From an uncultured archaeon (GTDB lineage: Archaea > Nanobdellota > Nanobdellia > Woesearchaeales > CAIVOO01): a DNA stretch of 38,187 bases. Numbering within the stretch: position 1 is the stretch's first letter; every line of letters starts with the position of its first letter. Below the pieces are notes generated by a model. The model ran no database searches and was not told the DNA's origin. It saw only the letters and a program-made list of their open reading frames with translations. Below are positions 9,805 through 29,525 of this stretch, in pieces. The DNA is taken from positions 1-38,187 of the forward strand of contig CAWJRI010000013.1 of assembly GCA_963845175.1 (NCBI GenBank). The letters are read 5' to 3'. The position numbers and the translations under genes are program-made.

Positions 9805-9838
9805 TTGTTCAGTGCTCCTTTCTGTGGTAAAGTGAATA

Positions 9839-9936
9839 TGGGCCCGCGGAGATTTGAACTCCGGACCACTGGCTCTCTTAAGCTCCAATGGCGGCCATAT
9901 AAGACCAGCGCTCCAACCAGGCTGAGCTACGGGCCC
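9839..9936 (-). tRNA. tRNA-Ile(UAU) with a 23-nt intron at 37/38 (9875-9897)
   Basis: GGGCCCGTAGCTCAGCCTGGTTGGAGCGCTGGTCT-TAT-A|intron|AGCCAGTGGTCCGGAGTTCAAATCTCCGCGGGCCCA. BHB helix CTTA/TAAG with bulges TA|T and AG|A. Acceptor and T arms are identical to tRNA-Ile(GAU) at 18465-18538. Confidence 0.92.
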
Positions 9937-9997
9937 AATGATATTCAAAACTTTAATATTTGTTTATAAAACTTTCGCGAATGAGAAAAATAATCTA

Positions 9998-10982: not shown

Positions 10983-11136
10983 ATGGGCCCGCCCGGATCG
11001 AAGCGGAGCAAATTTTACTAAAATTTGATTAAAGGTGATGCGGCTAAAGCGCATTACGCAAATTCTAACAAAGAATGAAAGATTTGCGGTAGCTATTATG
11101 CCCTCGAACAAATAAATCGAATGGGCCCGCCCGGAT
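10983..11136. repeat. 16-bp direct repeat of the tRNA-Val 3' end flanking ~120 bp of hairpins
   Basis: atgggcccgcccggat at 10983-10998 and 11121-11136. Confidence 0.88.
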
Positions 11137-11209
11137 TCGAACCGGGGACCTTCGCCTTTCTGAGCATATGCTTGTAAGGGCGACGTCATAACCGCTAGAC
11201 TACGGGCCC
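11122..11209 (-). tRNA. tRNA-Val(UAC) with a 15-nt intron at 37/38 (11158-11172)
   Basis: TCGCC-CT-TAC-A|AGCATATGCTCAGAA|A-GGCGA, with a relaxed BHB (one mismatch in the central helix) and a normal T arm. Confidence 0.92.
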
Positions 11210-13132: not shown

Positions 13133-14317
13133 ATGTTTAAGTTTCTTAAGGACAAACTGAAGAAGGCTGTTTCTATATTTTCAAAAAAGGTTGAAGAAGA
13201 AGTAGAGGAAAAGCCGAAGAAAGCTAAGGCATTAAAAAAAGAAAAAAAGCTGAAGGCAAAAGCTGAGAAACCAAAGGCCAAAGAAATCAAGCCGAAGAAA
13301 GAGAAAAAAGTTGAGGAAAAGAAAGAAGAAAAAATTGAGGAGAAGCCTGATGAAAAAGGGTTTTTTGCAAAGCTCAAGGATAAGTTTACTGGCGAAGAAA
13401 AGGCTGAAGAAGGGAAGGAAGAAGTTGAAGAAAAAAAAGGATTCTTTGAAAGAGTCGGCGAGGTTTTCACGACAAAAACGCTTTCTGAAGGCAAGTTTGA
13501 GGAGATATTCAGCGAGCTTGAGATGGCTATGCTTGAGAACAATGTCGCGCTTTCTGTCATCGAGAAAATAAAAAAAGACATGAGCGAGAAGCTTGTGAAC
13601 CAGAAATTAAGAAGAGGGCAGATTGAAGACACAATTGAAAATTCACTTAAGGAAAGCATCGAAGGGCTGATGAAAGAAAAGGAGGATTTCCTGAAAAAAA
13701 TAAGGGATGTCCTGAAGGAGAAAAGGCCGTGTGTCGTGTGTTTCTTTGGAATCAACGGCTCCGGAAAAACTACAACAATCGCAAAGCTCGCGAATCTGCT
13801 GAAGAAAAATAATTTTACCTGCGTACTTGCTGCAGCTGACACATTCAGGGCAGCTGCGATTGACCAGCTGCAGAAGCACGGCGACAAGCTGGGGATAAAA
13901 GTCATAAAGCAGGAGTATGGCTCAGATGCCGCTGCTGTTGCGTTCGACGCAATCGAGCACGCAAAGGCGCACAGGATTGATGTGGTGCTGATTGACACAG
14001 CAGGAAGGAGCCACTCAAATGCCAACCTGATGGACGAACTGGCAAAGATAATGAGGGTGACGAAGCCGGACATAAAGGTGTTTGTCGGCGATTCTCTGAC
14101 AGGCAATGATATGGTTGAGCAGGCTGAGATTTACACAGAGAAGACAGGCATCGATGGCATTGTGCTGGCAAAGGCAGATGTCGACGAGAAAGGCGGCGCA
14201 ATCATTTCTGTTTCTTACGTGACGAGAAAGCCGATTTATTATCTTGGCGTCGGGCAGGCGTACGACGATATTGAGAAGTTCGACGAAAAGAAAATTATGA
14301 AGAATCTATTCGGATAA
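13133..14317 (+). CDS. ftsY: SRP receptor FtsY
   Basis: GINGSGKTT, DTFRAAA, DTAGR, AKAD..KGG, LGVGQAYDD; charged N-terminal extension. Confidence 0.97.
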   Translation: MFKFLKDKLKKAVSIFSKKVEEEVEEKPKKAKALKKEKKLKAKAEKPKAKEIKPKKEKKVEEKKEEKIEEKPDEKGFFAKLKDKFTGEEKAEEGKEEVEEKKGFFERVGEVFTTKTLSEGKFEEIFSELEMAMLENNVALSVIEKIKKDMSEKLVNQKLRRGQIEDTIENSLKESIEGLMKEKEDFLKKIRDVLKEKRPCVVCFFGINGSGKTTTIAKLANLLKKNNFTCVLAAADTFRAAAIDQLQKHGDKLGIKVIKQEYGSDAAAVAFDAIEHAKAHRIDVVLIDTAGRSHSNANLMDELAKIMRVTKPDIKVFVGDSLTGNDMVEQAEIYTEKTGIDGIVLAKADVDEKGGAIISVSYVTRKPIYYLGVGQAYDDIEKFDEKKIMKNLFG

Positions 14318-14348
14318 TTGCGAAGAATTTATGGTTTTTGTAGAAACA

Positions 14349-14356
14349 TTTATTAA
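14349..14356 (+). promoter_or_regulatory. TATA box of the pheA transcription unit
   Basis: TTTATTAA preceded by a BRE-like GAAA; 23 nt before ATG 14379, the same spacing as other leaderless genes in the window. Confidence 0.75.
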
Positions 14357-14378
14357 CAAGCAAAACATATAATATTCT

Positions 14379-14420
14379 ATGGCTGAATCAAATTTTTTTG
14401 GTTTTGAATTCTTTTGCTAA
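14379..14420 (+). CDS. Putative Phe-rich leader peptide MAESNFFGFEFFC (pheL-like uORF)
   Basis: ATG GCT GAA TCA AAT TTT TTT GGT TTT GAA TTC TTT TGC TAA: 5 of 13 codons are Phe, and it lies directly upstream of prephenate dehydratase. Confidence 0.7.
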   Translation: MAESNFFGFEFFC

Positions 14421-14529
14421 TTCCGCCCCTCATAAGCTTTTTCTCAATGCGGCTGGTTTGAAAAACCGCTCTGCCGCCGGCGAAAACAGGGGCTTGTTCT
14501 GAATCATACAAATCATGGAGGCAAACAAA

Positions 14530-15369
14530 ATGAAAATCGCTTATTTAGGGCCGAAAGGAACGTTCACAGAGGATGCGGCGAAGATGGCTGCGAAAAGATT
14601 GAATAGAGCAGAGCTAGTGCATATGAGATCAATAGATTCTGTCGCAAGAAGTGTGGCTGGAAAAGAGGCAAAGCTTGGGGTGATGGCCTGCTACAACTAT
14701 CTCGAAGGGCTTGTGCAGGAGTGCCTTGACTTGGTTTACGAAAACAACCTAAAGATTGTCGGCGCAGAAAGGGTTTATGTAAAGTTTGCGATTGGTATGA
14801 AAAATGGAAACGCCGACTTTGGCAGGGTCTACTCGCATCAGAAGGCGCTGGCGCAGTGCTCAAATTATCTGTTCCAAAACTATCCGAAGGCACAGCAGAT
14901 TCCTGTTGCGAGCACTTCAAAAGCAGTGGAGGAGGCAGTCAATAACGGCGGGCTTGCTATAGCAAAGAAAGAAGCGTTGAAGAACATTGCAGTTCTGGCA
15001 GAAGACGTGGGAAACAAAAAGCACGGAAGAAAAAACTTCACTGACTTTTACGTTGTTGCCAGAGACTACTGCAGCGAAATTCCGGAAAATCCGCTGACAA
15101 TGGTTGCGATAACGCCGCGAATTGACAGGCCAATGCTTTTGCATGACTTGTTGGGAAAGATTGATTTGAACATTGAAAAAATACATTCAAGGCCTGCAAT
15201 AGACAAAGTTAATTTGGGCAACAACGGCGAGCCGCAGATGTTTTACCTGGAGATTGCCAGCCACATAGAATCAGATGAATTCAAGAAATGCATGGACGAA
15301 ATTAATGCGCTGGAGAAAGGCAAAATAACAGTCAGGATACTCGGCTCGTATGAAAAGCTGGGGAACTGA
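14530..15369 (+). CDS. pheA: Prephenate dehydratase-like protein with ACT domain (alternative start 14515)
   Basis: IAYLGPKGTFTE, YSHQKALAQC..YL, ASTSKA, IHSRP, FYLEI, RILGSY. GGAGG lies at 14517-14521 before ATG 14530. Confidence 0.88.
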   Translation: MKIAYLGPKGTFTEDAAKMAAKRLNRAELVHMRSIDSVARSVAGKEAKLGVMACYNYLEGLVQECLDLVYENNLKIVGAERVYVKFAIGMKNGNADFGRVYSHQKALAQCSNYLFQNYPKAQQIPVASTSKAVEEAVNNGGLAIAKKEALKNIAVLAEDVGNKKHGRKNFTDFYVVARDYCSEIPENPLTMVAITPRIDRPMLLHDLLGKIDLNIEKIHSRPAIDKVNLGNNGEPQMFYLEIASHIESDEFKKCMDEINALEKGKITVRILGSYEKLGN

Positions 15370-15444
15370 TTTTTTATTTTTTATAAAACACAAACATTTA
15401 TATATGGCAGATATACTAATTTCTTGAAAATAAAAGGTGTTTTA

Positions 15445-18039
15445 ATGAGAAAAACCTTGATTTTATTAGTTTTGGCTTTATTACTTGTCAGCATAGGTGT
15501 TTCTGCAACTATTTCAGACGAAATTTCAAGCAGCGTTGCTGGCTTCGGAGGCAAGGTCTGGGATGTTCTGAAAGGTATTTACAATTTCTTCAGCAGCGGC
15601 ATGACTGGATTTGTTGCTTATACAGGCAAGACTAATGTGACGACAAATTATACACATTCTGAAGATCCGCTGACAAGTGACATGGTCGGCTACTGGAAAC
15701 TTAACGGAAATGCGAATGATGAGACTTCAAATCACAATGACGGAACAGTTTACGGAGCAACGCCTACAACTGACTGCGTTTTCGGGACTGGGAACTGCGC
15801 TTATAGTTTTGATGGGGCAAACAATCACATAACTGTGGCAGATAATAGTGCCCTGGACTTATCTACTAATTTCGCAATTGAGTTTTGGGTAAAAACGAGC
15901 TCAGGCGTCCAATCAGGCATCATAGATAGAACAGACGAAAACGGAACGCAGAATTTTTGGGGTTATGGCGTCTGGATGAATGCTGGAGGACATGTCTACT
16001 TTTATGATGATGTCGGTGGGTGGCAAACATCAGCAGGGACAATAAACAATGGCTCTTGGCATCATGTGGCAGTAACATTAGCAGGAGGAAGCGGGTGTGT
16101 ATATATTGATGGCAGGTGTGACACGGCAATTAATGGCAGTGCAAATTCAAATTCCCTGCCTTTGTTGATTGGCAGCGGAAGAGACGCAAGCAATAACCCC
16201 CTCTATTTCCTCAATGGAATAATAGATCAAGTAATCATCTACAACAGAAGCTTGACTGCGCAAGAAATCAACGAAAGTTATACAAGAGAGATAGCAACAG
16301 TAACAACAAACAAGACAACGAATCTGACAATCTGGGACACAACTGACAATTCACCTGCAATTGTAAATCAGAATGTCTATGTATATGCAAATTACACGGG
16401 AAATGGTCATCCAATAGATGATTCAGTTGGAAGCTGCACATTTAGCCTCACAAGTGCTGCAATGCATTACAATTCTGTTTCAAAGCTCTACTTTTACAAC
16501 GGCAGTTCCCATGTACCATTACATATAAACTACACAATCAACTGTTCTTCGGCAGATTACAATGCGCTGACGCTGTCCGACCAATTGAGTATTGTGAGTT
16601 CAAGGATAAACATCACGAATGTGCTTCCATATGCAAAAACAAAAAATTCAGTAAAAATCAACTGGACAACAAACATCCCTGGCAACTCCACAATAAAATA
16701 CGGAATCACAAAGGCGCTTGCCTCTCATGTCTCAAGCGCTTCAAAGGTTACAAAACATTCTATATCATTGTCTGGCTTGTCGAATGCGACCAGATACTAT
16801 TACAACGTAACCTCATATAATTCTTCAGTTAATTATGCTGTTTCTGGTCCTTACAATTTCACGACAAAAATAAACGATGTTGCACCAATAATTTCAGGTG
16901 TGGTCTCTCATGTGATAGATTCAGAATCTGCAAGAATGACTTGGAACAATTCAGAGCCTGCGAACAGCAGGATATCTTACTCAAAGAATTCTGTGAACTT
17001 TACTCTGAATCAGTCGGATACGAGCTACCGCAGCAACGGTTCGATTACAATTTCTGGGCTTGAAAACTACACAACTTATTACTACAAGATAAAGGCATGC
17101 GATGTTGACGGAGACTGCTCCACATCAAGCATATACAACTTCAGGACGCTGCAGACATCACAGGCGCCTTCTGCAGTTCATGTGCCAGGAACAGGTGAGG
17201 GGCTGCAGCTGCCGCAAATAACCTCTTTCACCCTTACAGAAACTCCTCATCAGTCAACGCTTACACCCGGAGGAAGGTTCATATTTGATATCGACGGAAA
17301 CAGACATGAAATGAAAATGCTTAACGTGCTTGTGGATCGCGTCACGGTGCTGTTCAGCTCCGAACAGCTGAATTTAACATTTAACAAAGGAGAAACAAAA
17401 AAGGTTGACCTTGATGGAGACGGGGTGAATGACATAGAAGTCACCATAAATGACATAATCCTAACAAAGATTATTTTTACAATAAACACAATCAAAGAAG
17501 CAGCAGCGCCTCAAGGAGAAACTGTTCCTGAAAAAACAAATGAAGAAGAAAAGAATGTAACAAAGGAAATGCCCACTGAGCTGGCTGGGACTGGAAAAGG
17601 TTCTTCAATAATTGAAAAGCTGAAATTGGCTTCACTAATATTTGCTGCATTAATTATTGCTGCAGTCATAGGCATAGGCGGTTATTACACTTATCAGAAA
17701 ACTGCCACAGTTGATGTCAGGGAAGCAGCAACTCCAGAGGAAATGGAAAAGATAAATCAGCTGCCAAAGCCCCAGCTGGAAGTGCTGATTGATGATGTCA
17801 AATCAATGCTAAGGGCAAAGGCAACAGAAGATGATGTGAGGGCCCGCCTCGAGGGTGCAAGGCTCTCAAAAAGCGTAATTGATGCGTTGCTCTATGAAAT
17901 AAAAACAGGATTCAGCAGGCTTGACAAGCTGGTACTTTACTTAAAGCTGCAGAAGGTCAGGGGAAAATCAGTGGATAAAATCAGGGGCAGGCTGGCAAGG
18001 GTTGAATGGTCTGAAGAAATACTGAAGCTGCTAGAATAA
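15445..18039 (+). CDS. Membrane-anchored surface glycoprotein: LamG + Ig-like + 2 FN3-like domains + TM + cytoplasmic helical domain
   Basis: Signal peptide; VGYWKLNGNAND...WHHVAVT...GIIDQVIIYNRSLTAQEI (LamG-like); WTTNIPGNSTIKYG...LSNATRYYY (FN3-like, twice); TM IFAALIIAAVIGIGGYY. Confidence 0.88.
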   Translation: MRKTLILLVLALLLVSIGVSATISDEISSSVAGFGGKVWDVLKGIYNFFSSGMTGFVAYTGKTNVTTNYTHSEDPLTSDMVGYWKLNGNANDETSNHNDGTVYGATPTTDCVFGTGNCAYSFDGANNHITVADNSALDLSTNFAIEFWVKTSSGVQSGIIDRTDENGTQNFWGYGVWMNAGGHVYFYDDVGGWQTSAGTINNGSWHHVAVTLAGGSGCVYIDGRCDTAINGSANSNSLPLLIGSGRDASNNPLYFLNGIIDQVIIYNRSLTAQEINESYTREIATVTTNKTTNLTIWDTTDNSPAIVNQNVYVYANYTGNGHPIDDSVGSCTFSLTSAAMHYNSVSKLYFYNGSSHVPLHINYTINCSSADYNALTLSDQLSIVSSRINITNVLPYAKTKNSVKINWTTNIPGNSTIKYGITKALASHVSSASKVTKHSISLSGLSNATRYYYNVTSYNSSVNYAVSGPYNFTTKINDVAPIISGVVSHVIDSESARMTWNNSEPANSRISYSKNSVNFTLNQSDTSYRSNGSITISGLENYTTYYYKIKACDVDGDCSTSSIYNFRTLQTSQAPSAVHVPGTGEGLQLPQITSFTLTETPHQSTLTPGGRFIFDIDGNRHEMKMLNVLVDRVTVLFSSEQLNLTFNKGETKKVDLDGDGVNDIEVTINDIILTKIIFTINTIKEAAAPQGETVPEKTNEEEKNVTKEMPTELAGTGKGSSIIEKLKLASLIFAALIIAAVIGIGGYYTYQKTATVDVREAATPEEMEKINQLPKPQLEVLIDDVKSMLRAKATEDDVRARLEGARLSKSVIDALLYEIKTGFSRLDKLVLYLKLQKVRGKSVDKIRGRLARVEWSEEILKLLE

Positions 18040-18765: not shown

Positions 18766-18920
18766 AAATTTACGCTGCCCGTAACTTGTTACGGACCAGT
18801 AAATCCGCAGATTTACACTGTCTGTAAAGCTATATTGCTGCAATATATTTTAAAAACCTTTTCATTTTAGAAAGGTTTTTAAATCAAAGATTGTTCTTAA
18901 TATATGAAAAGGTGTTTATA

Positions 18921-21900
18921 GTGGGTGGTAAGATTCCCAAGTTAGCTGGAATAGTGCTAGTGGTAGTTCTAATAGCTGTTTCTGTATTCTTTTTGTGCAA
19001 AAATGGGCCTGTTAAAAGCAGTTTGAAAATCAGCTATTCGCTTCCAAATTCCCAAAATAAGGTAACTGGATTCGCTGTTGAAAACGCCACAGGAGAGGTA
19101 AAAAATCTCGTGCTTGAGGATGGCGCGAAGATTGATTATGGAAGCCAGGCAATTGATTTGAGCGGTGTTGATTTGGAAAGCGCTGTCAAGATAACAAACA
19201 CATCTGTCTACGTTGATTCCAAATCTGCGCCTGAGCTGAACAAGCCTGCAAGGCTGACTTTCTACAATGTAACAATTTCAGACCCTGTTATTTTGGAAGA
19301 CGGGAAAAAATGCCCAAATAATGTTTGCTCCAATATTGTTTTTGAAAATGAAGTTTTGAGCTTTGATGTTGCGCATTTCACCAATTTCACATACAACGCA
19401 AACACCAATCTGACCATATGGGACGAAACAGACAGCGGAAGGCCTTACGAAGGCCAGCTGAAGTATGTCAATGATGTTGTCCTGTTCTTTGCAAACTACA
19501 CAAATGAAGCAGGAAATGCGTTGACTCCGACAGGTAATGCAGGCAAATGCAACATATCCTTTGCTGGCTCCGCAAACAATGCAATGGCATATGATGGTAC
19601 AAAACATGTTTACACATATTCAAAAAGCTTTTACCCGAAAGGCGACTGGAAATACAATGTCAGCTGTGTTGCAACAGGGCATACTCTGCTGAATGTGTCA
19701 GACAACGCAACAATTAAAAATAAAATAACATGCGACGCAAGGCCCGATGCAGACACCTGCACAATCATAAACTCGTACCCAATTCTCAAAGAAACAGTCA
19801 TAAATTCAGCTGACATCGGCGCCAAAAACCTAGTGATTGACAGCGGTGGGAAAATCTATTCCAGCCCAGGCAATATAAACCTTACAATCAACCTGACAGG
19901 AAATCTGACAATCAATAATGGAGGGTTGATTAATACTAGTGCGGCATATACTGGGAACGTACTTGACCCTGGTCATTCAGGCGATATAAAAATATTTGCC
20001 AATGTTATTAAAGTTTCTGGAAGCATTTTGAGCGAGGGCAGTTATGGATGGGGCGGACATTATTATCAGCAGTGTGGCCAGGATTATTACGCTTACCATG
20101 GTGGCTATGCCGGAAAAATAATATTAAATGCATCTGAAGTTTATATTTATGGTTCTGGTTCGTTGAGATCAATGGGAAATGATGCTCCATCATCCTCTAA
20201 TCCTTCATGGTATGATGCAGGCCATGGCAATGAAATTAACATAAATGCAACAAAAACATATATTTATGCCGGGGCTTTATTATCTACAGTAGGAGGAAAT
20301 AATGTTAACTATGACGGTTCTGGATGCGGGATGGCGGAAGGAGGTCTTGGAGGCAATATAAGGATAAATTCAAATTCTGTGAACATTGACAGCGCATCAA
20401 TTAATTTGAGCGGGGGTATCTCTCATTATGGCGCTCCTGGATATGGCGGCATCCTGAACATAACAGCCAACACAATTTTATACAAAGGATCTACCACTGC
20501 AACAGGCCAGTCGTCTTACTATGACGGACAAATCCATTTCAACTTCAATAATAACATGACAAGGCTTTCTGGCTACTCCTACAGCCCTGTTGCATGGATA
20601 GAAAATTCCAACCATTGCGCTTATTCAAGCGGAACTTTCTTTAATACAAGCCTGGTGGACAACACAAACTGGATAATAGACAATTACAATTGCCATCTTT
20701 CAGGCAGCCACACATTGAATAATATTGTAATGAAAAATAGCGGAAACGTCACTGGCTCAGGACTGAGCCTGAAAGTCAACAATAACTTTAATTCATCAAA
20801 TTCAGCGTACATAACAGGGCTGAATCTGCTGAACATAAGCAAGAACGCGACAATAATCTCAGGAACACTTGGTCTTGGTAACGCTGCAAATCTGCAGGTC
20901 GCCGATGTGCTGAAAGTCTCTTCAGGCGCAACTCTTCAGGGGTTCAAGAGCCTTGACCCGGACATGATAAATATCTCGGGAAATCTGGTTGTATCAGTCA
21001 ACAACGCAAACATCTCCGGAAAAAACCTAATTGTGGGAAGCACAGGGCAGATTTATTCAAGCCCCATTTCGTATTCATTCAAAATAAACGTGAGTGAAAA
21101 TTTAACTGTTAAGAGTGGCGGGAAAATCCACACATACAATTTAACCTGGGCAGTTGATATGCCTGTTAATACAGCACGCAGTGCTGGGAGTATGACAATT
21201 CTGGCAAAAAACATCAATATTAGCGGAGAAATTGATTCTCTGGGGCCCGGATTTACGAAATCAATTTCTGATGCTTCGCGTGACTACTGTGCCGACAATG
21301 TGTCTAAAGCAGGCAACATACAGATAAATGCCGCCAATAATATTTATTTAAATGGAATTATACAAGCCGTTGGATACAGCAGACTATCTGGGTGTTATTG
21401 GGTTTGCGGCGGCGGGGGCGGAAGCATCGGTCTGCATGCTAACAAAAATATAATTATTTATCCAAATTCGAAAATAAACTCAACCGGAGGCATTGGCACT
21501 CACACTGCATGTTATAGTTACGGGAACGCAGGCGGGGCAGGAGGGAATATCTCTTTAAGTGCAAAGAATATTTCTGCCAAATCGCTTCTTAAAATAAATG
21601 CGCGCGGCGGAGATGCCGCCGAAGGCTGGCCTATTGGAGGCAATGGAGGGTCTGTTAAAATCAATGCAACAGGCAGCATTCTAAATATCTCAACAGGAAT
21701 TATTGACACTAGAGCAGGAACGGTAGTCGGTACTCAAGGCTATTCTGGCAATGTATTCCTAATATCACCAAAAACAATTCTAAGTATAATAAACATAACA
21801 ACAACCGGATACAACTCTTCTTACGATGGAAATATCAAATTCACAAGATTGTGCGGCTGGAACAGGGGAACTTATGCTCCGTCTGCAAACTACAATATTA

Positions 21901-24900
21901 TAAATGGTTATGGGGATTCAGATCATGACGCGATTTATGATGACTCTTTAGTAACTGTGTGCGGCATCTACAAGGACAACTGCCCAAATAATTTCAACCC
22001 TGGACAAGAGGACTCCAATCACAACGGATTCGGCGATGTATGCGATGCCACAATTTATTACACAGTCCAGAATCAGAATACAAGCCAGGATTCAAACAAC
22101 CTGGTTGACATTGACAACCAGCCGACTGCAATATGGGCTCTTTACAAAACAGGAGTGGGCATGCCAATACCTGCAAATGTTTTCTTTAATTTCTACAGAG
22201 AGGGCATTTTAATAGCAGGGCTTTCATGTTTTGGAAATACAAACTGCACCTATAACACCACGCAATCCATTGGCACCCATAACATAACAATCGAAGCTAA
22301 CTCAACAATATACCCGTATACAAGTGTTTCTTTTAATTTCACTGTCACAAACATATTAGTTTCAAGGAAATTGAGCGGCGCAACCAATTATCTTTTCAAT
22401 GGATACAATACAACAAGGAACTTGATATTATCAATCTCAGGAAACATGTCATATATTCACAATAACAAAAGACTTGATCAGAACCAGCAATACGAACTGT
22501 GGATTGATGGCGTGAAGAATGCGTCTTCTGTAACAATGGCTAATGGAGTGTATCAGACTAATTTAAATGTTGGAAACATTCTTGGAAACCACATTGCAAA
22601 AATAAACATCTCGCAGGCAACGGGGCTTTACGGCGAAACATCTGTTCTTTACACTGTCTGGATGGGCACTGGCCTGACAAATTATCTTGTGCAGAAGCAG
22701 CCTGGGGCAACAGACAACCAGGTTGATATCGACGACAAGAATGTGAGCATAAACATTACCTACATTAATGATACATCAGGTCCAATCCCCGGAACAATAA
22801 ACATCACAGTAAACAATGTCCTGAAAAGCTGCCCTCCGGCAAAAAGCTGTGGACAATTATTCAGTCTCGGTACGGGAAAGAATATCCCTGCCTTGGGAAC
22901 TTACACTGTTTATTTCACTGCAAGAAACAATTCAGCTTATTACAGACCGCAAACTACAACTGCCGGACAGTATCAAATAAGAGTAAGGAACATAACAATA
23001 ACGGAAACTATAACGCCTGACCATGCCCAGCCAGGCCAGCTGATTACTGTGAGTGGAAGGGCGTTTTACGCTGATAATAATGAGAATGTAACAAACAAAT
23101 ATCTGTCAATATACGTCAACGGAACATTCAATAAATCAGTGCAAACAAATACTGTTGGTGTTTACACGCACACCTTCCATGCATATCCTGTGCAGGACGC
23201 GGGAATTTACAATGTCAGCGTCAATTACACCGACACGAATGGAATAGGCGGCAAGTCAGTAAAATTGTTCGGCATATTTACACCAACGAAAGTTTCAGTC
23301 ATCAACTGGACATACAACAAGACAACTGCTGTGTTCAACATAAGCGCGAATTACTCGAGAGCTGACACGAACCAGCCAATCAGCGGAAACTGGAATGTTA
23401 TCCTCAAAAATACAAAAATTCCCTCGATAAACGCGACAAAACAATGCTATGGCAAGAATATTTGCACACTCTCTTTCAAGCTCGGAACAGGAGCAGGGGT
23501 TGATTTAAGAGGAGGAAACACAACAATAATTGTCAGTGCCAAAAACGAATCAGCTTATTTCAATTCAAGCTCATACTCCTTCCTGAAGTACCTGGAGGAA
23601 AAAAATACTACTGTAAAATTATGGGTGCAGAGCCGTGTGGTAACTGACAAGGTTTCGGCGCCCTATTCGCTAAACATCACAGCTGTTCTGAACAACACAG
23701 GATTCGGAACAGCCTACAACCCGATAATTTATGTGACTTATTTTGATTCGGGATTTTCTTCGCCGAACAGCATCCTTCCCTGCACTGCAAATCTCACCCC
23801 TTCAGACCTCGGCGGGAACATCTGCAGGCTTAATTTCACAATCAACATTTCTGCAGCTACTGGCGAGGGCAATTATATTATTTATTGGAAAGCAAATTTC
23901 ACAAACAATGATAAAAGCACTAAACTGTCCTCTCCTGCGACAAAAAGCACAATAAATATCTCAGGGATCGCAACAGTTGCCCTGGAGACACCTTTCAAGA
24001 GAACTATAAGCCACAGGACAACAGCATATTTCGTTACAGAAATTAATAACACAGGAACAACAACAGCAAGGCACGTTAATGTAACATTCAGCAATCGCGG
24101 GCTGCCGCAAAGCTGGGTTAACTGGACATGGTATAATTTTGGTAGAAATCACGATTCCAACGGTCTGCTGGATTTGATATGCGACCAAATCACAATAAAT
24201 GGAGGAGGAACCTCATACTGCACTGCCGATGAATGGGGAAAGGCATACGAACCATTAAACATCACTGTCTCTGTGCCTGCCGGAACAAGCCCGGGAAATT
24301 ACATAGGAATATTGAATTTCAGCTACTGCTTCGGCCCTTCATGCTCGCAAAAACATTACAGGGAAATGCTCCTGAACATCAGCGTTCCCCTGGACAACAG
24401 CTGGTATCAATATCCAAAAATCTCGTACAAAACAGTCGGGCTGAACATACCTGGAACTATTGAGACAATTTTTGTAAACAATACAGGCAATGTCAACGAA
24501 AATTTCACAATAGCTTATGGAAAGAATTTAACTCAATCATATCCTAAGTTTGCCCCTGAGGACAATCCCTCCACAATTTTTGCGCCGAAGAATTCTTTGG
24601 TTAGTTTTTCATTGGTTCATGGCGCATTTACAACTGCAAAAAACTATGTTCTTGAAGTAAATATTACAAATGCCACTGCTAATCCTCAATTAAACACCAC
24701 GTTAATTTACTTGACAGTTGTTAACGTTCCTCCAAGCATTACCATCACAAAAGTAAGTGAAAATCCTGTTGATGTCAACAGGCAGATTAACATCACTGCA
24801 AATATAACAAATGACGACAACTCCCCGCAAAACACAGTCAAAGCCTGGGGTGTTTTCAACCATTCGTCGGGAATTTCTTATAAAACACCAGTACAATCAT

Positions 24901-27900
24901 TTACAGTTAGTCCGGGAAACTACATTACCAAAACATTCTCATATAGCCCTCAGCTCAACGGAACATACAAAGTCACTATCTTTGCCAACGACACCGGCAA
25001 CAGGATTGGAAACACATCAGTTTTCTTCAGCACCTGGGGCTACACAACATTAAACATCACAAGAAACATGTCAGCAGTAAAGATTTACAATGTGACGCAG
25101 GCTGATTCGAAAAAATTCAGCTTCAACCTCACAGTGAAAAACATCGGGCATGCAAGGGCATACATCACTAACCTGACTGCGTTTGTGCCGAGCGGCTGGC
25201 TGGCAACAATCACCAGAATCGGAACAATTGTTATAAATCAGATAAAATCAGCAGTCATAAACATAACTGTCCCTGCGACAACAAAGCCCGGCTTGTATTA
25301 TGTCTATCCAAAAGCAGTTTGGAGGCAGGCAAATGGAACAATTGTAGGCAATCTTGGCGAAAGCATCAATGTGAATGTGACATCTACGCAGCGCCTTTCA
25401 CTTGGCAACTACCTAAATTCAACCAGCGTAGACCACGGCACAACAAAGAAAACAAATTTCACACTGAATTCGATAGGCAACACAAACCTGACAGATGCCC
25501 ACATAACCTGTTCAGGAGTGGAATGCGGAACATTTGGCATCATTCTCAGCCCAAGCTACATCGCGAACATTGCAGGAGGGAATTATAAAAGAATAAACCT
25601 GACAATCAGCGTGCCAAGGGGTCAGGCATGGCTGGCTGGCGGATACTTTGTGACAATCGGCGCATCAAATGCGTATGATTCAAAGAGCTACTCGCTGAAC
25701 ATCATTGTTCCAAAAGATGAAACTTATGCGTCAAAAAGCAACATCACGATAAACACAGTCTCAAAATACAAAAGCGTCTATTATTACAGGATAAACAACA
25801 CAGGAAACGTAAATGAAAGCCTTGTGTTCAACCTGACAGGGGCGCAGGTGACTCCAATAATAAACCTGCTGAAAAATGGAACATTGATAACAGCCCAGCA
25901 GCACTATGACCTTGGCCTCAACTACACTGCACCAGACATATCAGGAACAAACGTTAGAAATGGCAACCTGACAATAAGGGGACCGGTAAATAAAATAATT
26001 CCAATAATATTCAACACCTACGGCGTTGTCTTGGGTGTGAAAAACATCTCAAAGACAAGCAACATTATTGCAGGCAACAAACTGGTTTTCAGGTTTAACA
26101 TAAGCCTGGCTGGCACGCCGCTGATGGCAAACGTTTCCTATAAAATCTATATTAGTGGAAACAAGGCAACAATAAATTACAAAAGAATCTCAAACAATGA
26201 CACAATACTAAATTTCACTGCGCCTGCTGCAAGGGACGGAAGGCGCAATAACCTGACGCTTGAAACCACCTACAACAGCAACATCGGCGTGCTCGTCTTC
26301 AACACGACACTGGTGAATGCCCTGCTTTACAGGGATGTGACGCCTCCTTCAGTAATCGACGAATACTCGCCTTCGGTTGAGCTGGGGAATAACATAACAA
26401 TGGAGATTAATACCACAGACAACATCAACATCAGCAGGGCAATTGCAGTTGTAAATGGAATTACGTATGCGCTGGCAACAACAAATGGTTACACATACAA
26501 ATATACATTCGCAACGCCTGCAAAGGGGGATTATGACATAACATACAAAATCAATGACACGACAAACAACCTGAGGACATATTCCGAATACTTTGAGGTG
26601 TTTGAATACAAGCACCTGTACGGTGTTGTTAATGACTACAAGAATGTCAGCACCATTTTCAAATTCTACAGGCCAAACAGCACGCAGTTGCTTTACAATT
26701 ATACAACAAACCATATTTACAACCTGACTGTGCACAAGAGGAATTATGACATAATTATAGCATTCACAAACTCAACCCTCACTCTAAGAGGAGTTAACGC
26801 AACAATTCTGCCTGATGATTTCCTCAAAATGGGAAAAGTTCCGTCAACAATAAGGGTTACGCCTAGCGTAAAGACGCTTAATGGAATAGGGGGCAGCATA
26901 AATCTTTCAAACATAAACGGGCTTTTGATGTTTGAATTCAACCCAAATGATATAGCTGACCTGAACAGACTGGGCATATGGAAATGCAGCAGCTGGAACA
27001 TGGCAAGCGAAAGCTGTTCAAGCAGCTGGACAAAAATCACCAGCACTGTGATAAACAATCATATATATGCAATTCTTACGTCGCTTTCCGCCTATATTTT
27101 CGGCCAGGATAACAGTGTGGCAGCAACCACCGTAACAAATGTAGGTGGCGGGGGCGGAGGAGGGGGTCCATCAATATCGCAAATCGCACAGCTTGTGAAT
27201 GAAAGCAAGCAAATACTTCAAGAGATTAAAAAACAAGCTATCAGGGGGTTGTCGGTAGACACCACAGATGTGTCTGTTGAGCTTTATCCAGGAGAAAGTG
27301 CATCAACAATAATAAAATTGGTAAATACGAGAAATGAAACAGTCACAGCACATATAAAAGTTTCGGGTGATGCTGCAAATTATACGACCGTATCGCCGGA
27401 AAGTGTTGTACTGGCAAAAGGTGAGGAAGCCGGATTTGACGTTGAAATAAATATCCCAAAAACAGAACTAGAATCAGGAATGAAATACGGAAGAATCATA
27501 CTTTCAGCCGGCGAAGAGGAAACAGACATTCCAGTTAAAATAAGGCTTCTTGCACCTGTGGGAATGGAGCCGAAGATTACCGTAGAACCGCTTTCAACAA
27601 ATGTTGTGCCTGGGGAAAACCTGAAAGTCCAGTTTGAAATTACTCATCCGATTGAAATTCCAAGATTATATAATGTAAGCCTTGAGCTGGTAAACACGCA
27701 GTTTGGTGCAGTAATCTCTGAAATTTCACAAAAATATGCAATCGGCAAGACAACGGTTGATTCGCTTACATTAAATGTTCCTCAAAACGCTGCACTTGGG
27801 GAATATTATGTAAAGGGAACGCTGTATTACAATGAAAGCGGCGTAATAAAAAGTGTAACAGATGCAAAACCAGTAAGTATTGTCAAGCCGCTGACAGAAA

Positions 27901-29525
27901 GAATCAAGACATTTGCATTTACGAAAGTTGCGTTCCTGACAGTCTGGCAGATTGTACTTATTATTATTTGTTTAGGTGTGATTGCAAGTGCTGTGCAGGA
28001 ATACAGGGTAGTTATGAAGAAGAAGAAGAAATACCAATTCATTGTAGATTATGAAACGCTTCCAGAACCAGGGCCGAGGTCTGCCTGCGTCGGAGTCGTA
28101 GCTGAAACCAACAAGAGGGCTTTTATTGATATTGACAAGTTAACAATGCACACAATAGTTGCGGGCGCAACAGGAGGCGGAAAGACTATAGCTGCGCAGG
28201 ACATTGTGGAGGAATGCCTGCTGAAGAACATATCTGTGGTTGTCTTTGACCCAACTGCCCAGTGGACCGGCTTCCTGAGAAAATGCGACGACAAAAAAAT
28301 GATGAGGCTTTACAGCAAATTCGGCCTTTCGCCAAAGGCAGCCCGCGCATTCAACGGAAGCATACATGAGGTGACAAATCCGAGGGAGGTGCTTGACCTC
28401 AAGAAGTTCATGAAGCCGGGCGAAATAAATATAATCGCCATAAACAAGCTCGAGCCTGAGGAGATTGACATATTTGTCGCAAACACAGTCAGGGAGATAT
28501 TCAGGATGAATCTTCCTGAATCCCCAGATCTGAAGACGTTGATAGTCTATGACGAAGTGCACCGCCTCCTGCCGAAGTACGGCGGGTCTGGCGAGGGAAT
28601 CATACAGCTTGAAAGGGGATGCAGGGAATTCAGGAAGTGGGGCGTTGGCGTGCTGCTCATCTCGCAGGTGTTGTCTGACTTCGTAGGCGAGATAAAGGCG
28701 AACATAAACACAGAAATGCAGATGAGGACCAGGCATGAAGGGGATTTGACAAGGATATCGCGCAAATACGGCGAATACATACTGCAGAACCTAGTAAGGG
28801 CGGGCGTCGGAACTGGAATGATTGAAAACGCCGAATGGAACAAGGGCCATCCATATCTTGTGACGTTCAGGCCGATACTGCACGCCACAAAGAGGCTGAC
28901 AGACGATGAACTTGAAAAATATAATAAATATGACAACATAGTCGAGGACATAAGAAATGAAATTGAACAGCTGAAAGATTCCAATGTTGATGTTTATGAC
29001 CTTGAAATCGAGCTGAACCTTGCGCTTGGCAAGCTCAAGTCAGGCAATTTTGAGATGGTTGAGATTTATCTTGACGGCATAAAACCAAGGATTCAGAAGC
29101 ACTGGCAGGCGCTTGGAAAGACGCCGAAGAAGCGTGAAATAAAGCTTGTGCCTGAAGAGGAAATTAAAAAAGAAATAGAAGAGGCAAAGAAGGCAAGAGA
29201 AGCTTACCTCACAAGGCTGAGAAAAGTTCCTGAGGTGGAGCTCGGCCAAGCTCTAAGAGAAGTAGTTGGAGAGTCTACGAAAAAGCCTGCTGAGGCTGAT
29301 AAAAAACCAGCTGAAAAGGGAGAAGTTTCAATCCGCGATCTCGTAAACCATTACAATGGTTTGAGGAAAAAGGTCTTGGAAATAAATGACAAGATAAAGC
29401 TGCGCGATGCCGCAACAAAACTGACAAAAACTGCAGAGGATGTTAAGAAAGCCATGCAGACAAACAACAGGGATGATATTGTCAGGCTGAAAAAAGACCT
29501 TGAGGAAATAGAAAAAGGTTTATAA
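18921..29525 (+). CDS. Giant (~3,530 aa) surface protein fused via a TM helix to a cytoplasmic HerA/FtsK/VirB4-like (DUF87-type) ATPase
   Basis: Probable GTG start after AGGTG. N-terminal anchor; Gly-rich repeats; thrombospondin type-3-like DNCPNNFNPGQEDSNHNGFGDVCD; many Ig/CARDB-like units; poly-Gly linker; TM ~27940-27995; Walker A GATGGGKT (~28164-28187); VVVFDPT; Walker B IVYDEVH; FRKWGVGVLLISQ. Confidence 0.9.
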   Translation: MGGKIPKLAGIVLVVVLIAVSVFFLCKNGPVKSSLKISYSLPNSQNKVTGFAVENATGEVKNLVLEDGAKIDYGSQAIDLSGVDLESAVKITNTSVYVDSKSAPELNKPARLTFYNVTISDPVILEDGKKCPNNVCSNIVFENEVLSFDVAHFTNFTYNANTNLTIWDETDSGRPYEGQLKYVNDVVLFFANYTNEAGNALTPTGNAGKCNISFAGSANNAMAYDGTKHVYTYSKSFYPKGDWKYNVSCVATGHTLLNVSDNATIKNKITCDARPDADTCTIINSYPILKETVINSADIGAKNLVIDSGGKIYSSPGNINLTINLTGNLTINNGGLINTSAAYTGNVLDPGHSGDIKIFANVIKVSGSILSEGSYGWGGHYYQQCGQDYYAYHGGYAGKIILNASEVYIYGSGSLRSMGNDAPSSSNPSWYDAGHGNEININATKTYIYAGALLSTVGGNNVNYDGSGCGMAEGGLGGNIRINSNSVNIDSASINLSGGISHYGAPGYGGILNITANTILYKGSTTATGQSSYYDGQIHFNFNNNMTRLSGYSYSPVAWIENSNHCAYSSGTFFNTSLVDNTNWIIDNYNCHLSGSHTLNNIVMKNSGNVTGSGLSLKVNNNFNSSNSAYITGLNLLNISKNATIISGTLGLGNAANLQVADVLKVSSGATLQGFKSLDPDMINISGNLVVSVNNANISGKNLIVGSTGQIYSSPISYSFKINVSENLTVKSGGKIHTYNLTWAVDMPVNTARSAGSMTILAKNINISGEIDSLGPGFTKSISDASRDYCADNVSKAGNIQINAANNIYLNGIIQAVGYSRLSGCYWVCGGGGGSIGLHANKNIIIYPNSKINSTGGIGTHTACYSYGNAGGAGGNISLSAKNISAKSLLKINARGGDAAEGWPIGGNGGSVKINATGSILNISTGIIDTRAGTVVGTQGYSGNVFLISPKTILSIINITTTGYNSSYDGNIKFTRLCGWNRGTYAPSANYNIINGYGDSDHDAIYDDSLVTVCGIYKDNCPNNFNPGQEDSNHNGFGDVCDATIYYTVQNQNTSQDSNNLVDIDNQPTAIWALYKTGVGMPIPANVFFNFYREGILIAGLSCFGNTNCTYNTTQSIGTHNITIEANSTIYPYTSVSFNFTVTNILVSRKLSGATNYLFNGYNTTRNLILSISGNMSYIHNNKRLDQNQQYELWIDGVKNASSVTMANGVYQTNLNVGNILGNHIAKINISQATGLYGETSVLYTVWMGTGLTNYLVQKQPGATDNQVDIDDKNVSINITYINDTSGPIPGTINITVNNVLKSCPPAKSCGQLFSLGTGKNIPALGTYTVYFTARNNSAYYRPQTTTAGQYQIRVRNITITETITPDHAQPGQLITVSGRAFYADNNENVTNKYLSIYVNGTFNKSVQTNTVGVYTHTFHAYPVQDAGIYNVSVNYTDTNGIGGKSVKLFGIFTPTKVSVINWTYNKTTAVFNISANYSRADTNQPISGNWNVILKNTKIPSINATKQCYGKNICTLSFKLGTGAGVDLRGGNTTIIVSAKNESAYFNSSSYSFLKYLEEKNTTVKLWVQSRVVTDKVSAPYSLNITAVLNNTGFGTAYNPIIYVTYFDSGFSSPNSILPCTANLTPSDLGGNICRLNFTINISAATGEGNYIIYWKANFTNNDKSTKLSSPATKSTINISGIATVALETPFKRTISHRTTAYFVTEINNTGTTTARHVNVTFSNRGLPQSWVNWTWYNFGRNHDSNGLLDLICDQITINGGGTSYCTADEWGKAYEPLNITVSVPAGTSPGNYIGILNFSYCFGPSCSQKHYREMLLNISVPLDNSWYQYPKISYKTVGLNIPGTIETIFVNNTGNVNENFTIAYGKNLTQSYPKFAPEDNPSTIFAPKNSLVSFSLVHGAFTTAKNYVLEVNITNATANPQLNTTLIYLTVVNVPPSITITKVSENPVDVNRQINITANITNDDNSPQNTVKAWGVFNHSSGISYKTPVQSFTVSPGNYITKTFSYSPQLNGTYKVTIFANDTGNRIGNTSVFFSTWGYTTLNITRNMSAVKIYNVTQADSKKFSFNLTVKNIGHARAYITNLTAFVPSGWLATITRIGTIVINQIKSAVINITVPATTKPGLYYVYPKAVWRQANGTIVGNLGESINVNVTSTQRLSLGNYLNSTSVDHGTTKKTNFTLNSIGNTNLTDAHITCSGVECGTFGIILSPSYIANIAGGNYKRINLTISVPRGQAWLAGGYFVTIGASNAYDSKSYSLNIIVPKDETYASKSNITINTVSKYKSVYYYRINNTGNVNESLVFNLTGAQVTPIINLLKNGTLITAQQHYDLGLNYTAPDISGTNVRNGNLTIRGPVNKIIPIIFNTYGVVLGVKNISKTSNIIAGNKLVFRFNISLAGTPLMANVSYKIYISGNKATINYKRISNNDTILNFTAPAARDGRRNNLTLETTYNSNIGVLVFNTTLVNALLYRDVTPPSVIDEYSPSVELGNNITMEINTTDNINISRAIAVVNGITYALATTNGYTYKYTFATPAKGDYDITYKINDTTNNLRTYSEYFEVFEYKHLYGVVNDYKNVSTIFKFYRPNSTQLLYNYTTNHIYNLTVHKRNYDIIIAFTNSTLTLRGVNATILPDDFLKMGKVPSTIRVTPSVKTLNGIGGSINLSNINGLLMFEFNPNDIADLNRLGIWKCSSWNMASESCSSSWTKITSTVINNHIYAILTSLSAYIFGQDNSVAATTVTNVGGGGGGGGPSISQIAQLVNESKQILQEIKKQAIRGLSVDTTDVSVELYPGESASTIIKLVNTRNETVTAHIKVSGDAANYTTVSPESVVLAKGEEAGFDVEINIPKTELESGMKYGRIILSAGEEETDIPVKIRLLAPVGMEPKITVEPLSTNVVPGENLKVQFEITHPIEIPRLYNVSLELVNTQFGAVISEISQKYAIGKTTVDSLTLNVPQNAALGEYYVKGTLYYNESGVIKSVTDAKPVSIVKPLTERIKTFAFTKVAFLTVWQIVLIIICLGVIASAVQEYRVVMKKKKKYQFIVDYETLPEPGPRSACVGVVAETNKRAFIDIDKLTMHTIVAGATGGGKTIAAQDIVEECLLKNISVVVFDPTAQWTGFLRKCDDKKMMRLYSKFGLSPKAARAFNGSIHEVTNPREVLDLKKFMKPGEINIIAINKLEPEEIDIFVANTVREIFRMNLPESPDLKTLIVYDEVHRLLPKYGGSGEGIIQLERGCREFRKWGVGVLLISQVLSDFVGEIKANINTEMQMRTRHEGDLTRISRKYGEYILQNLVRAGVGTGMIENAEWNKGHPYLVTFRPILHATKRLTDDELEKYNKYDNIVEDIRNEIEQLKDSNVDVYDLEIELNLALGKLKSGNFEMVEIYLDGIKPRIQKHWQALGKTPKKREIKLVPEEEIKKEIEEAKKAREAYLTRLRKVPEVELGQALREVVGESTKKPAEADKKPAEKGEVSIRDLVNHYNGLRKKVLEINDKIKLRDAATKLTKTAEDVKKAMQTNNRDDIVRLKKDLEEIEKGL

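Follow-up and report, generated by a model that had tools for sequence, protein, structure and literature searches.

A presumptively leaderless phenylalanine-rich upstream frame and a conserved hairpin form a probable ribosome-mediated phenylalanine-sensing leader ahead of pheA in the Woesearchaeales

Why should a 13-codon frame that ends in a cluster of phenylalanine (Phe) codons stand behind a promoter-like box just ahead of the prephenate dehydratase (PDT) gene pheA of an archaeon? The question is raised by a 38,187-nt contig from an uncultured member of the Woesearchaeales (CAWJRI010000013.1, assembly GCA_963845175.1; the whole stretch is hereafter termed the window, and its source genome, G000, the host), for which an original prediction had proposed a Phe attenuator resembling enterobacterial pheL. 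Bacteria provide the textbook cases of amino-acid sensing by ribosomes that stall on a leader peptide. Comparison with related loci leads us to conclude that the region preceding pheA is probably a cis-acting regulatory leader that senses Phe through the ribosome. Its sensor part appears well supported by the conservation described below, and the earlier interpretation as a whole is partly supported; absent from the latter were a conserved structured RNA, the anticodon-loop-like apex of that RNA, and a wider set of downstream genes.

The locus is laid out on the forward strand. A TATA box, TTTATTAA (14349-14356), precedes the ATG (14379) of a short upstream open reading frame (uORF) by 30 nt from start to start, with 22 nt between the end of the octamer and the ATG. 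This uORF (14379-14420), presumptively leaderless, spans 13 codons, reads MAESNFFGFEFFC* and closes with a TAA stop; Phe occupies five of its last eight sense codons (14394-14399, 14403-14405, and 14409-14414), including two FF pairs. From its stop to the ATG of pheA at 14530 there are 109 nt (14421-14529), within which a Shine-Dalgarno (SD) sequence, GGAGG, lies at 14517-14521, and a further ATG, in frame with pheA, at 14515. The pheA gene itself (14530-15369), taken here as the regulated gene, encodes a prephenate dehydratase of 279 amino acids (aa) (PF00800, E 2.9e-38); NCBIfam prephenate dehydratase models also match the product, below their cut-offs. The original prediction had placed the TATA box, the uORF, a U5 tract, the GGAGG, the pheA ATG, and the 109-nt gap at these same positions and had read the Phe-rich end of the uORF in the same way.

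Is the uORF plausibly the first cistron of a transcript? Promoter geometry was counted in the host genome paired with that of G031, a relative with a closed, 99%-complete genome. Strong TATA octamers peak exactly 30 nt before the first ATG (103 of 1168 long ORFs; 153 of 1168 at 29-31 nt), and this sharp peak bears out the leaderless spacing that had been claimed for the locus. An SD-like motif occurs instead of the TATA box at 246 ORFs, and both occur together at only 6. Across the 27 loci that share the arrangement (see below), a TATA-like motif stands 27-36 nt before the uORF ATG in every case, and exactly 30 nt before it in 15. Judged by these positions, the promoter of the uORF is laid out like that of a true leaderless first cistron, from which layout we infer the start of transcription, and pheA, by the same kind of sequence criterion, carries the SD of an internal cistron. 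There are 331 TATA-linked short ORFs in the two genomes, of which 23 have at least four of one residue within the last nine; the two that are Phe-rich are precisely these leaders, one per genome. No cognate leader for any other amino acid was seen among the 331 before a recognisable cognate gene.

This arrangement was found at 27 loci in all, 24 of them in 23 genomes from 17 families of the host's order and three on metagenome contigs; the order, which comprises at least 136 families with genomes of 0.6-2.7 Mb, was sampled through 401 genomes. Of 61 related genomes, 21 yielded homologues of pheA. In the four closest relatives (84, 56, 50, and 40% identity; from three other families), a TATA box is followed by a Phe-rich short ORF and, downstream of this, by the 13-nt motif GGTYTGAAAAACC. 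The uORF is kept, with mixed TTT and TTC codons, at pheA homologues of 50-85% identity in four of four genomes, and also at the four metagenome loci with enough upstream sequence, which is the comparison on which the original prediction had staked itself. Seven more distant pheA homologues lie directly against an upstream coding region and carry no leader, and other distant pheA homologues of the order have neither a Phe-rich uORF, nor the motif, nor the hairpin.

Over the 27 loci, the uORFs run to 12-25 codons, with 3-7 Phe codons near the end. Phe codons number 115 in the reading frame, against counts of 40 and 49 out of frame, so that their conservation in frame, as had been anticipated, is upheld; usage is split between 83 TTT and 32 TTC, and the encoded peptides have little in common besides Phe.

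What lies between this sensor-like frame and the SD of the downstream gene? At the host locus, positions 14423-14505 constitute a full match to a covariance model (R2; 56.5 bits, E 9.2e-9) of a structured RNA element. The GC content of this segment is 54%, compared with 41% for the genome, and only 6.9% of 83-nt windows reach as high, in agreement with the earlier description of a GC-rich spacer. The element consists of a helix P1 (~7 bp), an AUAA/GAAA internal loop, a helix P2 (4-9 bp), a variable internal loop, and a helix P3 (3-4 bp) closing a 7-nt YUGAAAA loop. In the host, a UUCC spacer (14421-14424) joins the uORF stop to the 5' strand of P1 (GCCCCU, 14425-14430), whose partner is AGGGGC (14488-14493); compensatory changes are found in all seven P1 columns. 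The internal-loop strand J12 (C-AUAA, 14431-14435) faces J21 (GAAAAC, 14482-14487), with AUAA and GAAA near-invariant in two alignments, A5 and A6. The U5 tract (14438-14442) is situated on the 5' side of the hairpin between P1 and P2. The covarying P2 strands are GCGGC (14449-14453) and GCCGC (14473-14477), and P3 is formed by GGU (14455-14457) and ACC (14465-14467) around the anticodon-loop-like UUGAAAA (14458-14464). The 3' strands of P1 and P2 are supported by both single-sequence folds and covariation. A conserved 3' tail, UUG-UUC-UGA-AUC (14494-14505), completes the element, with UUC at 14497-14499 followed by UGA at 14500-14502. The pairings GCCCCT/AGGGGC, GCGGC/GCCGC, and GGTTT/AAACC, previously taken for competing folds, are instead nested helices of this one conserved hairpin.

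Plain MAFFT alignment followed by RNAalifold recovered only P3 (three pairs), with the other helices out of register. A covariance model was therefore seeded from three in-register sequences with a hand-written structure, used to align 19 loci (A5), and rebuilt as R2. In A5, 86.7% of cells pair, compared with 66.0% in shuffled alignments; 14 of 17 pairs show compensatory changes, and the covariation score of 0.558 (0.202 when shuffled) was reached by 0 of 500 shuffles. Sliding the partners by 1-3 columns lowers pairing to 32-49% (maximum 49.4%). RNAalifold run independently on A5 predicts P1, P2, and P3 as well; compensatory changes occur in 10 of the 13 pairs that it gives, and six loci outside the building of R2 behave likewise (86.6% of cells pair vs 64.3%; 13 of 17 pairs compensatory). 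The P2 columns covary in 7/7 cases in A5 and in 5/7 in the six held-out loci, and the same nested architecture appears in 15 of 20 single-sequence folds. No Rfam family reached its gathering score in the window except tRNAs; with E values up to 10, positions 14200-14700 gave only caiA and TUG1_2, unrelated, weak, and far under their gathering scores.

The motif GGTYTGAAAAACC and the model R2 delimit how widely the element is distributed. The former occurs at 69 places in 62 of the 401 genomes, while its reversed control gives ~50 matches; a Phe-rich uORF ends 24-46 nt upstream at 20 of these places, and the remaining 49, which have none, are scattered, mostly within coding sequence, a division that fits the excess over the control. 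Searched with R2, the order gave matches in 9 of 151 genomes, and four of the nine lack the exact motif. All five metagenome relatives of pheA match R2 as well, four in full and one interrupted by the end of its contig. In the host genome the pheA leader is the single match. R2 gave no match in ~130 genomes from other orders of the class, and chance occurrences of ATAA..motif..GAAA in other phyla scored at most 29.4 bits among the 80 listed of at least 120 stretches, mostly bacterial. Among the genomes searched, the element is conserved and confined to one order.

At the apex of the hairpin, the P3 loop is constant while the P3 stem covaries, and at the four loci found through the model the loop core UGAAAA is kept even where the stem is altered (GGC/GCC in L096) or the loop is one base longer. 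Anticodon loops have the general form Y32, U33, NNN, R37, A38, and the P3 loop has this form too. ARAGORN finds 11 tRNAs in the host assembly, tRNA-Phe not being among them, and the comparison was thus made with tRNA-Phe(GAA) of G031: its anticodon loop, CUGAAGA, agrees with YUGAAAA at six of seven positions, differing only at position 37, and the P3 stem is unrelated to its anticodon stem. A second ARAGORN call of tRNA-Phe(GAA) in that genome (G031:C1:635609-635698) is 90 nt long, with an oddly long variable arm and a mismatched acceptor stem, and could be either a miscall or an atypical gene resembling a tRNA.

The tail is patterned as well. A TTC begins 0-3 nt 3' of the closing strand of P1 (P1') in ~20 of the 25 loci modelled, and within 14 nt in 21. 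At 11/25 loci the first TTC after P1' is followed by a stop, directly or after 0-1 Phe codons, compared with 3.7% under the null (nominal p ~7e-9, the loci not all being independent); in the remaining loci, a stop mostly follows within seven codons. By eye, the tail of several loci (e.g., L096 and L098) resembles a second copy of the loop, UYUGAAAA. At L003/L031 of G001, a genome of the same genus, ~60 extra nt with two perfect hairpins (12-bp and 10-bp stems) stand between the tail and the pheA SD; these are absent from the window and may represent an inserted palindromic element.

How are sensor and hairpin joined? In all 27 loci the uORF stop falls between -1 and 14 nt ahead of P1. The last Phe codon is 12-20 nt from P1 in 26 of the 27 (one at 8) and 13-17 nt from it in 22; at the host locus it begins at 14412, 13 nt before P1. 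Spacing is tighter from the last Phe codon than from the stop. With the edge of the ribosome 12-13 nt from the A-site codon, this distance would bring a ribosome that pauses at the last Phe codon for want of Phe-tRNA directly up to the base of an intact P1.

Which genes would such a leader serve? The element stands before pheA in 12 genomes and before uncharacterised proteins at 12 loci in 11 genomes (two loci in G319). It is always located directly upstream, on the same strand, of an SD-led gene that has no TATA box of its own, and an SD-like motif precedes the downstream start in all 25 loci modelled. The uncharacterised products (L025, L046, L055, L059, L061, L062, L064, L065, L074, L095, L097, and L098) are 85-240 aa long. 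Those of L064, L065, and L098, together with a second ORF in L046, have a common Cys-rich C-terminal region, those of L061 and L074 share another segment, and six of the 12 have an N-terminal hydrophobic stretch; no match was found in Pfam (8 of the 12 scanned), NCBIfam (8 scanned), or the ESM Atlas (one protein). A PDT domain was not found in 10 of 10 genomes with the element before such a protein, eight of which are at least 94% complete, and the eleventh, G013, gave no match to the host pheA protein.

These products have a compositional bias in common. Phe makes up 0-2.8% of the 12 uncharacterised proteins and 0.3-3.6% of leader-linked pheA products (2.9% in the host), compared with 3.7-5.2% in pheA homologues of the same order that have no leader and a genome median of 4.5% (5th percentile 1.9%). 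Proteins needed during scarcity of an amino acid tend to avoid that amino acid, and the Phe-poor products of all leader-linked genes therefore argue for induction under Phe shortage. An element that switches on when Phe is short would fit this composition. The host, G001, G020, and the closed genome of G031 yielded neither chorismate synthase (PF01264) nor CM_2 chorismate mutase (PF01817), and all four have a class I/II aminotransferase alongside pheA; G014 has both the synthase and the mutase. This suggests that the host pheA may serve a shortened, last-steps-only route to Phe that uses imported prephenate or a similar precursor.

We propose a mechanism as follows. Transcription would start at or beside the ATG at 14379, as the position of the TATA box indicates, making the 13-codon frame a leaderless first cistron. 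When charged tRNA-Phe is scarce, ribosomes would stall on the five Phe codons at its end; one held at the last of these is predicted to rest against the intact hairpin, while one that has moved on to the stop is predicted to reach into P1 at most loci. The hairpin and its UUCU(R)A tail would act as the effector, i.e., the state of the hairpin, or the access it affords to a factor recognising the conserved loop and tail, would set expression of the SD-led second cistron. Expression of pheA (or of a Phe-poor uncharacterised protein) would thus rise when Phe is short. For the step in between, our preference, which is tentative and short of even confidence, is that the stalled ribosome sterically excludes a hairpin-binding factor that otherwise lowers downstream expression. 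This would account for a spacing fixed to the last Phe codon and not to the stop, for the conserved loop and tail, and for the loci at which termination spares P1. Since anything from 16 to 116 nt separates the element from the start codon, with two extra hairpins in between in G001, the decision is probably taken at the hairpin and not at the ribosome-binding site (RBS). Alternatively, the signal could be passed on through the integrity of the hairpin or through stabilisation of the mRNA by the stalled ribosome.

Several points weigh against this mechanism. The alignments, made with a covariance model, are already adapted to the structure, and kinship among the sequences makes the shuffle tests look stronger than they are. 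Taken alone, the host element does not fold significantly better than shuffled versions of itself (z = -1.03; an equally stable fold in 29 of 200), such that support for the structure comes from covariation and not from folding energy. That 20 loci share the 13-nt motif unchanged is in part a matter of ascertainment, the motif having been the search query; only the four model-found loci and the metagenome loci test its constancy independently. With a ribosome at the stop codon, thermodynamic prediction leaves P1 mostly open in about two-thirds of loci and mostly intact in about one-third, and melting at termination is therefore not universal. Stalling at one of the early Phe codons would leave the ribosome out of reach of the hairpin. 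For transduction, no conserved alternative pairings were found, nor was SD occlusion consistent over the 25 loci, and our analysis yielded no candidate trans-acting factor. Lastly, the features observed are a conserved uORF with leaderless geometry, in-frame Phe codons, a covarying hairpin, a fixed spacing, and Phe-poor products; from these we infer stalling, the direction of the response, and the transduction step, and likewise the start of transcription, translation of the uORF, and the response to Phe.

Other explanations of the locus have to be weighed against the same evidence. Bacterial-type transcription attenuation, in which antiterminator and terminator hairpins would alternate and oligo-U or aCPSF1 termination would occur before pheA, appeals to the Phe-rich leader peptide ahead of pheA, as in enterobacterial pheL, to the U5 run, and to the pyrimidine/U-rich tail (UUCU..) that follows the hairpin by 0-3 nt in ~20/25 loci and loosely recalls a hairpin-plus-U terminator. 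The helices, however, are nested and not alternative, and complementarity of the uORF 3' region to the element or tail stays within what composition gives (-0.9 to +0.8 kcal/mol relative to shuffled targets). No terminator-like site is found in 14300-14530, in keeping with the original statement that a bacterial hairpin-plus-U terminator is lacking; as for the U-tract that had been offered in its place, a run of at least five T is present in only about one-third of loci (by eye), and an internal U-run and a tail of at least four U are each missing from many. Since P1 forms with either a stalled or a departed ribosome, a terminator made from this hairpin would moreover fail to respond in the right direction, and we regard such attenuation as quite improbable. 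Translational attenuation of the ermC or mycobacterial leaderless poly-Cys type, by which the free leader would hide the pheA SD and a stalled ribosome would free it, is improbable too, even though the combination of a presumptively leaderless small ORF (sORF), cognate codons, and an SD-led second cistron matches a mycobacterial report (10.1101/834739). At the host locus the SD is predicted to be 3% unpaired in the free leader and 58% with a ribosome on the last Phe codon, UUCC (14421-14424) pairing with GGAG; the earlier idea of SD accessibility thus holds as a prediction for the host and is not consistently predicted elsewhere, as over 25 loci the unpaired probability of the SD rises only from 0.29 to 0.40, inconsistently, and that of the ribosome-binding window from 0.45 to 0.49 (Wilcoxon p = 0.07). 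The 16-116 nt span and the G001 insertion speak against it as well, and it leaves the conserved hairpin and loop sequence unexplained.

Should the hairpin instead be read chiefly as an operator for a trans-acting factor, either PheRS or another tRNA-Phe-binding protein, through mimicry of an anticodon arm, with the uORF secondary? The operator of E. coli ThrRS is reportedly a comparable system. The six-of-seven match to the anticodon loop, a loop that is constant on a covarying stem, and the second UYUGAAAA-like copy in the tail of several loci, which would suit a two-site factor, all favour this reading. Against them stand a P3 stem of just 3-4 bp, unlike that of a tRNA anticodon arm, the lack of overlap with an RBS that is 16-116 nt away, regulated genes that are not aminoacyl-tRNA synthetases, and the want of a candidate factor; a uORF present at a fixed distance in 27/27 loci is not dispensable, and we consider this account unlikely, though it deserves a hearing. 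A riboswitch that binds Phe or a related metabolite directly, with the small ORF incidental, would suit an RNA that is conserved and covarying, keeps its AUAA/GAAA internal loop near-invariant, and precedes a Phe gene. The element is a simple rod, though, with neither a multi-helix junction nor an evident pocket, no expression platform was found, and the uORF, its in-frame Phe codons, and the fixed spacing are conserved as strictly as the RNA, making this a very remote prospect. It is harder still to credit a functional Phe-rich micropeptide or a stand-alone small RNA of which pheA is a mere neighbour: a conserved short ORF with its own promoter is what one would expect, but the peptides are alike only in Phe, the element always lies directly 5' of a same-strand SD-led gene without a TATA box (pheA in 12 genomes), and the downstream proteins are Phe-poor.

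Of the systems known to us, the enterobacterial pheA attenuator (pheL; the Rfam family Phe_leader, which we take to be RF01859) and trpL, hisL, and leuL resemble the locus in having a short ORF rich in codons for the product amino acid, clustered near the end of the ORF, and share its expected logic, whereby stalling raises expression. Unlike them, the present leader is archaeal, and its ORF is presumptively leaderless (TATA at -30) and not SD-led. It has no terminator/antiterminator pair, no GC hairpin with a U-run, and no match to an Rfam model, and instead carries one hairpin, conserved in sequence and structure, whose distance to the last Phe codon is fixed. Expressed as the hallmarks of bacterial attenuators, codon enrichment is present (5/13 codons here; 27/27 loci), while mutually exclusive hairpins, an intrinsic terminator, and an Rfam match are all absent. 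T-box riboswitch features are likewise not seen: there is no Rfam match, and the conserved loop carries the anticodon GAA and not a codon. The E. coli thrS operator is said to include a tRNA anticodon-arm mimic that is bound by its own synthetase. In common with it, the locus has an mRNA hairpin whose 7-nt loop contains the cognate anticodon within a Y-U-NNN-R-A signature; in contrast to it, the present hairpin is away from the RBS, precedes no synthetase gene, has a short stem, and is coupled to a leader peptide, and any mimicry is predicted from the loop sequence.

By analogy, the sensor is most like the mycobacterial leaderless poly-Cys system. The 'Cys ribulon' (Canestrari et al., 10.1101/834739) comprises leaderless polycysteine sORFs on which stalled ribosomes block an RBS-hiding duplex. 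A first-cistron sORF, predicted to be leaderless here as well, its cognate-codon tract, and the SD-led gene are common to both systems, as is the use of the same sensor before different genes with the ribosome coordinating a regulon (10.1101/834739). The present loci, which are archaeal and concern Phe, differ from that system in that RBS unmasking is not consistently predicted and in that each sORF comes with a conserved structured RNA (10.1101/834739). The internal loop has a precedent of another kind in the UAA/GAN motif, a GNRA-like internal loop that recurs in rRNAs, introns, and riboswitches and commonly engages in A-minor contacts (PMC2615604). Here UAA stands opposite GAA between two helices in the correct orientation (P1-[A]UAA-P2 ... 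P2'-GAA[A]-P1') and is near-invariant (PMC2615604). Relative to the motif, each strand of the loop here is longer by one A, giving 4 x 4 nt, and the resemblance is one of sequence and orientation only (PMC2615604).

The patterned tail invites one more alternative, i.e., a starvation-gated hop, in which a ribosome holding peptidyl-tRNA-Phe, with a hungry Phe codon in its A site, would skip the hairpin and land on the UUC 3' of P1'. The next codon, usually a stop, would need no tRNA, allowing termination past the hairpin and reinitiation at the SD-led gene. The hairpin would bar the way to ribosomes that complete the uORF in the ordinary manner, and take-off and landing might be helped by the purine-rich P1' strand and the anticodon-like loop of P3. 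We rate this as a long shot. Cauliflower mosaic virus provides an sORF-plus-hairpin precedent in ribosome shunting. A shunt after normal termination, as in that virus, would respond in the wrong direction here. With the bypassing of phage T4 gene 60, the locus has in common a short ORF ending before a stable hairpin and a stop after a potential take-off codon, as well as a matching UUC directly 3' of the hairpin and a purine-rich strand before it (PMC7026636). In contrast to that account, the stop here mostly comes right after UUC, such that no fused protein would result, the gap is ~90 nt compared with 50 nt, and the downstream gene has its own SD (PMC7026636). Resumption of the gene 60 type into a second open frame was not seen, with a stop after TTC in 11/25 loci and within seven codons in most others.

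Apart from the preferred steric-exclusion version of the leader, three further couplings were tried and rejected: (i) a frameshift at a hungry Phe codon that reads through the hairpin, for which the shifted frame is open in only 4 of 25 loci; (ii) a duplex of the 5' flank with the tail or RBS, with predicted energies of -4.8 to -17.5 kcal/mol and no common register; and (iii) pairing of the uORF 3' end with P1, P2, P3, J21, or the tail, which shows no excess over shuffled targets.

In a full-text literature search, neither this RNA nor any archaeal leader peptide with an amino-acid-sensing role was found to have been described; subscription journals lay outside its coverage, and a prior mention is possible. 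The kind of sensor is known from bacteria, and what would be new is the archaeal setting and a structured RNA in place of a terminator/antiterminator pair. If the proposal is correct, it would bring translation-coupled metabolite sensing to Archaea with archaeal promoters and leaderless mRNAs, and provide a defined natural system for how the archaeal ribosome communicates with downstream RNA. The uncharacterised Phe-poor proteins would then be flagged as part of a Phe-starvation response of likely auxotrophic, host-dependent archaea. The element also offers a new RNA family for annotation.

The host assembly amounts to 687 kb, is an estimated 65% complete, and includes a prefoldin gene, which together with a long, probably intron-bearing tRNA gene points to an archaeon of small genome, probably of a DPANN lineage. 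Upstream of the locus is the gene for the SRP receptor FtsY. On the 3' side of pheA, the gene at 15424-18039 (+) encodes 871 aa with Laminin_G_3, purple-acid-phosphatase-N, and fibronectin-III-like domains, and its product is probably a surface protein. Further along, a single ORF of 3544 aa (18891-29525, +) lies just downstream of two tRNA genes. Rfam recognises five tRNAs in the window and ARAGORN four, the 88-nt one at 11122-11209 (-) being called by Rfam only, and the tRNA-Ile(TAT) gene at 9838-9937 (-) is 100 nt long, a length that suggests an intron.

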